From a phage, in sequence record PV467748.1: 64,000 nt of DNA; one strand, 5' to 3'. The position numbers and the translations under genes are program-made. The notes under the pieces were generated by a model. It was not told the DNA's origin, did no database searches, and saw nothing but the letters and a program-made list of their open reading frames with translations. Positions 39,238 to 39,797 of the stretch are shown here, piece after piece (the first letter of the stretch is position 1; each line of letters begins with the position of its first letter).

Positions 39238-39510
39238 TTATTTTAAATAAATTGCATATTTTTTATAACCAGCTGTCTCGTGGCGCAGCCCTTTTTCATT
39301 AGCAAAACGTTCAATATTATTGATTTGATTCTGGTCAAGTTCTGACGTGTCAAATACAAAAAAGTTTCGCTTGTTGCCTAAAGTTACATGATTAGTCAAA
39401 TCGATGTTATAGAGATGATTTATATTATCAATCATGGTCTTAACAGATTTGTTAATTTTTGCTTCTTCATTAAGAATAGATTCAGCGATAAATTCTTGAT
39501 AAGTTTTCAT
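39238..39510 (-). CDS. internal-protein-like gene with CTS (~91 aa)
   Basis: Track ORF 39238..39555 trimmed to ATG giving MKTYQEFIAESILNEE.... Confidence 0.55.
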   Translation of the reverse strand: MKTYQEFIAESILNEEAKINKSVKTMIDNINHLYNIDLTNHVTLGNKRNFFVFDTSELDQNQINNIERFANEKGLRHETAGYKKYAIYLK

Positions 39511-39519
39511 TTTGATTTC

Positions 39520-39578
39520 CGTGTGGTTGGTTTGTTTTGATAGGTCTATAGGCATGATACTATAGACCTTGTAAACAC
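39520..39578 (-). promoter_or_regulatory. early promoter cassette variant with internal palindrome aggtctatag/ctatagacct (-35 GTTTAC)
   Basis: Plus ttttgataggtctataggcatgatactatagaccttgtaaacacc. Confidence 0.5.
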
Positions 39579-39587
39579 CTTTTTAAA

Positions 39588-39797
39588 TTATTTTAGCCAT
39601 GAAGAATTTTCAGAGACCCAGCTATCTATATCTGATTGAGGGCCAAAGAAGTAGGCAACCCCATTAGATAGCTCTCCTGAAAGCCAATTTATACCTTTCA
39701 GGCTTTCTTTAAATTCTTCAGGAGTACAAGAAACCTCTATTGCCACCGAAGAGGCGGATTCCATTGCTTCTGTTAAGAATTCGCTGTAGGTTTTCAT
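39588..39797 (-). CDS. internal-protein-like gene with CTS (~69 aa; ipI position directly upstream of 57B)
   Basis: Track ORF 39588..39815 trimmed to ATG giving [17 protein letters not shown]...; its ATG overlaps the 57B stop (ATGA). Confidence 0.55.

Follow-up and report, generated by a model that had tools for sequence, protein, structure and literature searches.

The ipI slot of a T4-like Dhakavirus holds Ip9 and a second predicted internal protein

Introduction

Internal proteins (IPs) are the first phage factors to enter the host cytoplasm, and their genes occupy two loci, one between 57B and trna.4 and the other next to gene e. In a phage sequence of 64,000 nucleotides (record PV467748.1; the window, meaning this whole stretch), the former locus contains two small open reading frames, here ORF A and ORF B. 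What do these encode, would their products be packaged and injected, and what would they act upon in the host?

T4 Ip1, Ip2 and Ip3 are the only IPs of known function, and each blocks a distinct GmrSD of the type IV restriction class (PMC12373910). The capsid targeting sequence (CTS) of T4 IPIII, its ten N-terminal residues, suffices for incorporation into the prohead core and can package foreign proteins; residues 4 and 7 set targeting, and residues 8 and 10 set cleavage by gp21 at L/I-x-E (PMC9026906). Variable CTS genes flanked by promoter/stem-loop cassettes were described at this locus by Repoila et al. 1994, as related in PMC2839356, PMC4122927 and PMC3012670, and the same three papers record that the polymorphism of the IP locus was later connected with PeSL cassettes.

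Results

Phage group and gene order

Megablast matches and annotation assign the window to Dhakavirus, a T4-like group that includes JS98 and IME08. Positions 39100-39900 matched 602 phage records by megablast; the best matches (IME08, IME341, IME281 and EcWhh-1, ~96% identity) each fall in two pieces. Every gene in this part of the window has the minus strand as its coding strand; the transcriptional order is:

41248-40487, minus strand: gene 1, dNMP kinase, the first in the transcription order listed
40494-40249, minus strand: 57A, after gene 1
39794..40249, minus strand: 57B/Acb1, anti-CBASS 2H phosphodiesterase of 151 aa (Pfam PF23474, phrog_755, synteny with T4 57B)
39588..39797, minus strand: ORF A, 69 aa, followed by a 77-nt spacer
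39238..39510, minus strand: ORF B, Ip9, 90 aa, followed by a 68-nt spacer
38984..39169, minus strand: trna.4 homologue, a predicted membrane protein of 61 aa (phrog_1692, E 8e-33)

The trna.4 gene, annotated in JS98, IME08 and T4 (PF26870 in relatives), forms the downstream edge of the ipI slot, with trna.3 and trna.2 next. The T4 order is 57A-57B-ipI-trna.4-trna.3-trna.2. Since ORF A and ORF B are flanked by 57B/Acb1 on one side and trna.4 on the other, in an order otherwise like that of T4, both occupy the ipI slot. The preliminary description of this DNA had placed them there, and its two starts, at 39510 and 39797, are correct in coordinates and N-termini. Its wording 'directly upstream of Acb1' holds in plus-strand numbering only; these being minus-strand genes, they are transcriptionally downstream of Acb1.

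The same description drew attention to predicted injected proteins next to an anti-CBASS nuclease. The adjacency is real: Acb1 matches PF23474 at E 8.4e-59 (197.9 bits against a gathering score of 27), and both HxT motifs, HSTICY and HITLSY, are visible in its translation. The novelty was overstated, as IP genes beside 57B/Acb1 are ancestral T4 synteny, inherited from a common ancestor, and Ip9 had already been named. An 'anti-defence island' read from the Acb1 adjacency was dropped because this synteny is inherited and common to T4. Antisense plus-strand ORFs (39388-39540 and 39087-39209) have no support past mechanical ORF listing, nor has a terminator-like site (39272-39289, plus strand) past its mechanical listing.

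ORF B is Ip9

ORF B runs on the minus strand from an ATG at 39510 to 39238, stop included, and its N-terminus reads MKTYQEFIAE followed by SILNEE. Sequence comparison identifies it as the already known Ip9. It matches phrog_7673 ('internal head protein') over positions 1-90 of 90 at E 1.9e-55, is 77% identical to RB15 Ip9 (Q38376) over 100% of its length (E 8e-39), and is 96-99% identical to the genes annotated Ip9 in IME08, WG01, QL01 and MX01. Ip9 has borne this name since 1994 (Repoila et al.). The Ip9 of RB15/K3 (Q38376, phrog_7673) and ORF B agree in length, CTS and locus and are homologous over their full length; the window's copy differs by a private A17, which is V17 in relatives, and by a flipped loop in the upstream hairpin. 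An exact-sequence look-up of the window's Ip9 product returned no record, and a PDB sequence search with Ip9 found nothing. The predicted mature protein has 80 aa, 9.4 kDa and a pI of 8.0.

The domain of Ip9 (residues ~20-90) also occurs without the CTS. It is found as an ORF of 72-74 aa in the early regions of ~12 Kagunavirus-type siphophages and a Seuratvirus, and as part of a protein of 1124 aa in phage LHE287. These CTS-less homologues in unrelated coliphages are a small addition to what was known, and they suggest a portable module that may act on a target with no tie to T4-type cytosine modification.

ORF A belongs to a small family of possibly Ip6-like candidates

ORF A starts with an ATG at 39797 on the minus strand and ends, stop included, at 39588. 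Its start codon (39797-39795) overlaps the TGA stop of Acb1 (39796-39794) in an ATGA at 39797-39794; the overlap, already noticed in the earlier account, is visible in the sequence itself. Six nt 5' of the ATG there is a Shine-Dalgarno sequence, GAGGA. The ATGA overlap suggests that ORF A is translationally coupled to 57B/Acb1. The 57B-ORF A junction recurs in IME08, JS98 and WG01, and in fDHCT2 it is Ip9, not ORF A, that sits at the same ATGA junction with 57B.

The family of ORF A is phrog_23867 (function not annotated), matched at E 1e-42. Three GenBank Dhakaviruses (IME281, EcWhh-1 and Esco_phi_B-01) encode an identical protein, annotated hypothetical, and the family as a whole is present in 29 phage records: Dhakaviruses, EcS1, Erwinia phage Gravdalen and the Citrobacter phages CF1, Merlin and Ursula. 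HMMER, run exhaustively over 1.8 billion representatives, yielded no more than four extra members of 66-74 aa, all with the N-terminus MK(T/S/F/I)(Y/F)x(D/E)F(L/I)...EAME. Members span 66-74 aa and 44-99% identity, and all keep the CTS. HMMER matches of 5326, 3323, 1108 and 248 aa were discarded as spurious, being PKD, fn3 and malectin repeat proteins whose scores added up from weak stretches. The predicted mature ORF A, beginning at AMES, has 59 aa, 6.4 kDa and a pI of 4.1.

Pfam and NCBIfam hold no family for either ORF, and a PDB sequence search with ORF A gave chance-level antibody heavy-chain matches only (best E 0.003). The nearest likeness is to Ip6 of T6-type Tequatroviruses and VR7, with which ORF A shares CTS, size (69 vs 77 aa), locus, predicted fold and a C-terminal GPxxxIxxWxxEN motif; ORF A lacks a 10-residue insertion and belongs to another PHROG family. 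The individual comparisons are marginal, both with fFiEco06 Ip6 (BLASTP 25% identity, pairwise E 7e-7, hhalign probability 88%) and with VR7 Ip6 (E5FII6; Foldseek E 3e-3, TM 0.70). Weakly but consistently, they suggest that ORF A is distantly Ip6-like over its whole length. The phrog_23867 family would accordingly comprise CTS-bearing, acidic, Ip6-like internal-protein candidates, present in GenBank but hitherto unrecognised as such.

T4 IPI/IPI* (PDB 2JUB, phrog_4363), the injected inhibitor of the CT596 GmrSD, occupies the same 57B-trna.4 slot as ORF A and ORF B. Like them it is small, with an N-terminal MKT(Y/F)xEF targeting peptide and predicted gp21 processing. In its mature region no homology to either ORF was detected, BLASTP and hhalign aligning residues 1-8/10 only, and the families differ (4363 for T4 IPI, 7673 for ORF B, 23867 for ORF A). 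The IPI* fold (PDB 2JUB) was not recovered. Clear orthology to T4 IPI, which the preliminary description had named as counting against its reading, was not seen in these alignments.

Both ORFs behave as real coding genes. ORF A differs from its JS98 counterpart by 9 synonymous and 2 non-synonymous codon changes, and Ip9 from its relatives by 9-17 synonymous against 1-4 non-synonymous; changes that are mostly synonymous indicate strongly purifying selection.

Targeting peptides and predicted processing

The motif xK[TS]Yx[ED]F[ILV]x[ED] was scanned across the window against a background of 200 shuffles, giving 5 matches vs a mean of 0.005 in the shuffled sequences. All five lie at the ATG of minus-strand ORFs of 69-198 aa, which start at 39797, 39510, 37125, 27789 and 27308. 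Those in the ipI slot are:

39768..39797, minus strand: CTS of ORF A, codons 1-10, with Y4, F7, L8 and E10 present
39481..39510, minus strand: CTS of Ip9, codons 1-10, identical in 10/10 residues to the T4 IPII/IPIII CTS

The description of both genes as CTS-bearing and IP-like is thereby borne out. The determinants Y4, F7, L/I8 and E10 are present in both ORFs. The sole [LI]xE site of ORF A is LTE at residues 8-10, and Ip9 has IAE at 8-10 plus a non-conserved LNE at 13-15. In the AlphaFold2 models (pLDDT 79-80) the CTS forms an N-terminal helix that stands apart, and a linker of low confidence connects it to an alpha/beta domain of compact shape. Both ORFs combine the CTS, the gp21 motif, a position in an IP locus and variable presence among relatives, features that characterise the IP class. 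An orthologue of IPIII is encoded separately in the window, at 26712-27308.

Because the CTS agrees with the experimentally defined T4 CTS and its gp21 site, there is good support, from sequence and by analogy with T4, for the well-founded prediction that both proteins would be packaged, cleaved after Glu10 and injected.

The slot is reshuffled at CTS codons and cassettes

Nine relatives show eight arrangements of the 57B-trna.4 slot, none of them that of the window. The gene contents are:

Window and L027: A + Ip9
IME08: A + Ip8-like + Ip9
WG01: A + Ip8-like + Ip9 + Ip7
QL01: Ip8 + Ip9
ABTNLS3: Ip9
fDHCT2: Ip9, joined to the 57B stop by the ATGA
MX01: Ip9 + Ip7
JS98: A (GTG start) + a 97-aa IP
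Esco_phi_B-01: A + an 84-aa IP + Ip8-like

ORF A is missing from QL01, MX01, ABTNLS3 and fDHCT2, and Ip9 from JS98 and Esco_phi_B-01. The closest relative found, the Logan contig L027 (SRR31536116), has the same gene arrangement as the window. It rules out the notion, raised by the lack of any phage record covering 39100-39900 unbroken, that the A + Ip9 arrangement is unique.

Relative to IME08, the window lacks 228 bp corresponding to the 74-aa Ip8-like gene. The crossover maps to 39501-39488, inside 14 nt (TATCAAGAATTTAT) common to two CTS-coding segments. Among the relatives the junctions fall in CTS codons or in promoter/stem-loop cassettes. Homologous recombination at the CTS codons and the early-promoter/stem-loop cassettes is thus shown, by comparison of the sequences, to reshuffle the genes of the slot, and the window's arrangement is an instance of the IP-locus polymorphism of Repoila et al. 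1994.

This exchange bears on whether the proteins could chiefly serve head structure or assembly as accessories (core, DNA condensation), with no role after injection, as holds in part for IPIII. T4 IPIII mutants do assemble heads more slowly and have a reduced burst size (PMC9026906), and mature Ip9 is mildly basic at pI 8.0. Against such a role, the genes come and go freely among near-identical phages (Ip9 not in JS98; ORF A not in QL01, MX01 or ABTNLS3), and unrelated phages use the Ip9 domain with no CTS attached. In addition, the acidity of ORF A makes DNA condensation unlikely, and the window has its separate IPIII orthologue. IPs do occur at hundreds of copies per head, which would suit an accessory; in sum we judge a purely structural function very unlikely.

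Promoter cassettes and an inverted loop

Strict early promoters were defined as TTTACW-N16-18-TAYWAT. The transcription signals around the two genes are:

43223..43230, minus strand: late-promoter motif TATAAATA, a motif match and the nearest upstream on the coding strand
39559..39587, minus strand: possible substitute promoter TTTAAA-N17-TATAGT, 9/12 matches in a consensus scan
39542..39576, minus strand: cassette 1, between ORF A and ORF B, GTTTACA at 39576-39570 plus a hairpin
39206..39234, minus strand: cassette 2, after ORF B, TTTACA-N17-TACTAT, an early promoter of canonical T4 type whose hairpin is imperfect

The hairpin of cassette 1 has a perfect 10-bp stem (arms 39569-39560 and 39551-39542) and an 8-nt loop (39559-39552). 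In related phages the cassette reads GTTTACA-AGGTCTATAG-GCATGATA-CTATAGACCT (IME08, JS98 and nine more copies in IMG/VR Dhakavirus contigs), and loop and 3' arm together supply the -10 element TACTAT. The loop is GCATGATA, ACATGATA or GTGTGATA in all 11 related copies. In the window it is TATCATGC, the exact reverse complement and hence inverted relative to every one of them. The flip changes the -10 of cassette 1 from TACTAT to GCCTAT, and the strict early-promoter definition, which has 13 matches across the window, does not pick up cassette 1. The predicted RNA fold (-17 kcal/mol, z -3.4) is stable in either loop orientation.

This private flip, by which the Ip9 promoter loses its -10, is newly described here. 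Over 2048 bp the window and L027 differ by 2 SNPs and exactly the 8 loop bases, so the flip is either very recent or an assembly artefact. It may also create a substitute promoter at 39559..39587, where relatives read TATAGG.

The preliminary description had given each gene its own early-promoter cassette, which does not stand. No T4-type early promoter was found on the minus strand between ORF A and 42500, leaving ORF A without a cassette. The cassette of ORF B lacks a consensus -10, and cassette 2 is assigned to trna.4, which is not an IP gene. The window's cassettes resemble PeSL-type cassettes (Arbiol et al. 2010, PMC2839356; Comeau et al. 2014, PMC4122927) in combining TTTACW-N17-TAYWAT with AT-rich hairpins that flank variable small genes. 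In PeSLs, however, the hairpin lies beside the promoter, whereas in the window it spans the spacer and the -10, and one loop is inverted with loss of the -10.

With this promoter damaged, early expression of Ip9 is uncertain; packaging requires late expression. Late transcription might start at the TATAAATA motif and reach genes 2, 3, 1, 57A, 57B and the IP genes by read-through.

The damaged promoter ahead of Ip9 would fit a different account, that one or both ORFs go unpackaged, the MKTY N-terminus being a recombination remnant on ordinary early cytoplasmic or inactive proteins. JS98 ORF A, with its GTG start and the N-terminus MKSYKEFLTE, might be taken the same way, and our search for literature on virion proteomics of Ip9, the ORF A family or Dhakavirus IPs found nothing relevant, hence no proteomic record of packaging. 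However, the two non-synonymous changes of ORF A relative to JS98 affect two non-critical CTS positions, 3 and 5, and the critical positions are kept in homologues whose other parts have fallen to 44-54% identity. Strongly purifying selection and the sufficiency of the 10-residue CTS for packaging foreign proteins in T4 (PMC9026906) also oppose this account, which we consider most improbable.

Discussion

The locus is an ordinary instance of a previously described T-even-type feature. Taken as a whole, it is likely best explained as a hyperplastic ipI locus in which two IP genes, ORF A and Ip9, would encode packaged, injected and probably anti-defence proteins within a slot that recombines.

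We propose that the 10-residue N-terminal CTS would bind both proteins to the scaffolding core of the prohead, as by analogy with T4 IPIII. The prohead protease gp21 would then cut after Glu10 (L-T-E in ORF A, I-A-E in Ip9), leaving inside the head their mature forms, 59 residues long for ORF A and 80 for Ip9. These would be ejected with the DNA and act ahead of any phage gene expression. Once in the cell they would most likely counter a host defence; the example of T4 Ip1-Ip3 suggests a type IV, GmrSD-like nuclease, although the targets may be different systems.

The functional model for the locus is provided by T4 Ip2/Ip3 (Silas et al. 2025, PMC12373910), which are injected, act as subtype-specific anti-restriction proteins and bear a CTS identical to that of ORF B. 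Their mature sequences are unrelated to those of ORF A and Ip9, and they belong to the other IP locus (window counterparts 26712-27789). Dhakavirus DNA is probably hypermodified, carrying arabinosylated 5-hydroxycytosine as judged from conserved gene clusters (PMC13326640), which makes modification-dependent nucleases a plausible threat. On these grounds ORF A and Ip9 are probably anti-defence proteins. The weakest step is the choice of target: a modification-dependent nuclease (type IV, GmrSD-like) is a tentative assignment by analogy, plausible but short of probable.

A competing explanation retains packaging and injection for both proteins and assigns them to another defence system or to host takeover rather than to modification-dependent restriction. 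On this view Ip9 would carry as its payload an early effector of general use, which T4-like phages made injectable by adding the CTS, and ORF A would be a small acidic partner of Acb1. The occurrence of Ip9 domains without a CTS in the early regions of the Kagunavirus-type siphophages and the Seuratvirus points in this direction; these phages are not known to have T4-type cytosine modification, which argues against a target tied to it. When ip4-10 from T4-like phages were screened against a panel of active GmrSD variants, no inhibition proved reproducible (PMC12373910 and its supplement). In addition, the T4 IPs are basic and mature ORF A is acidic, which counts against the explanation preferred above, and ORF A would be co-translated with an anti-CBASS enzyme. 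Set against this, all three T4 IPs of known function inhibit GmrSD enzymes, and GmrSD diversity is very large, with a handful of variants assayed in the published screen. The adjacency to Acb1 is inherited synteny, true of T4 ipI too, which is not CBASS-related, and sequence and structure comparisons gave no link to known anti-defence proteins. A target outside modification-dependent restriction therefore seems somewhat unlikely.

A more specific conjecture is that both are injected inhibitors of non-GmrSD defences, Ip9 being a portable anti-defence domain preloaded by the addition of ten codons and ORF A acting against a DNA-sensing or nucleotide-signalling system; this we hold to be unlikely. 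With or without a GmrSD target, the existence of a CTS-less Ip9 domain in unrelated coliphages narrows the hypotheses on what Ip9 acts upon.

Since IPs arrive first and T4 Ip1-Ip3 are highly specific in their anti-restriction activity, a catalogue of IP modules would help to predict host range, and would be useful, for example, in choosing phages for therapy. The present locus clearly documents CTS codons and promoter cassettes as recombination joints.

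IP genes behind Acb1 and at other loci

ORF A, the Ip6-like internal-protein (IP) candidate of the window, overlaps the stop codon of the anti-CBASS nuclease gene Acb1 by ATGA at 39794-39797. In phage fDHCT2 it is Ip9 (L019 804-1076), not ORF A, that meets the Acb1 stop codon via the same overlap, and evidently different IP genes can occupy the Acb1-coupled position, swapped via recombination within the codons of the N-terminal capsid targeting sequence (CTS). The ORF A copy of JS98 and JS10 begins with GTG (VKSYKEFLTE), not ATG, and is unannotated in both records; the IME08 record likewise leaves both ORF A and a 74-aa Ip8-like gene without annotation.

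JS98 (L002) 3104-3313, ORF A copy with GTG start

The second IP locus of the window consists of a clear IPIII orthologue and a 132-aa CTS ORF, the latter occupying what is the ipII position in T4. A third CTS-bearing ORF lies directly downstream of tRNA-Met and tRNA-Arg (37577-37733) and falls within neither classical IP locus; the equivalent place in IME08 and JS98 holds a longer CTS ORF (205 aa, compared with 154 aa in the window).

26712-27308, minus strand, IPIII orthologue, 198 aa (phrog_5341)
27391-27789, minus strand, CTS ORF, 132 aa (phrog_15461)
28293-28300, late-promoter motif TATAAATA
36661-37125, minus strand, CTS-bearing ORF, 154 aa, MKTYNEFLTEQ... (phrog_2280)

Early-promoter cassettes

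T4-type early promoters were located at 13 sites on the minus strand of the window, from 7143 to 39234. An extended conserved tail, GATACTAT-AGACCTATCAA, is common to most of them, and in many an inverted repeat runs across the spacer and -10. These promoters are highly similar repeats spread over 30 kb, and could serve as recombination substrates.

The cassette before Ip9 contains a hairpin whose loop reads as the exact reverse complement of its counterpart in each of the 11 related copies of the cassette. The same loop is also inverted relative to the near-identical SRA contig (SRR31536116), from which the rest of the ~2 kb differs by just 2 SNPs. Through the flip the -10 TACTAT of Ip9's early promoter is lost and TATAGT is newly formed, 17 nt past TTTAAA. 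Either the palindrome mediated a recent inversion here, or the flipped loop is an artefact of the assembly.

39542-39569, minus strand, hairpin with perfect 10-bp stem; 8-nt loop at 39552-39559

The Ip9 domain outside T4-like phages

Stand-alone ORFs of 72-74 aa that lack a CTS match the mature Ip9 domain (residues ~20-90) with 46-53% identity. Siphophages with small genomes, including about 12 Kagunavirus-type records, carry them in the early region, where they are automatically annotated as 'internal head protein', a label that is probably a misnomer for these CTS-less ORFs.

OR594183 (L004) 2504-2722, CTS-less Ip9-domain ORF
Seuratvirus SHIN8 (L005) 2498-2722, CTS-less Ip9-domain ORF
LHE287 (L006) 2501-2698, Ip9-like domain close to the C-terminal end of a very large protein

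The last of these, in the 149-kb Escherichia phage LHE287 (PP761450), has 34-41% identity and sits inside a 1124-aa CDS.
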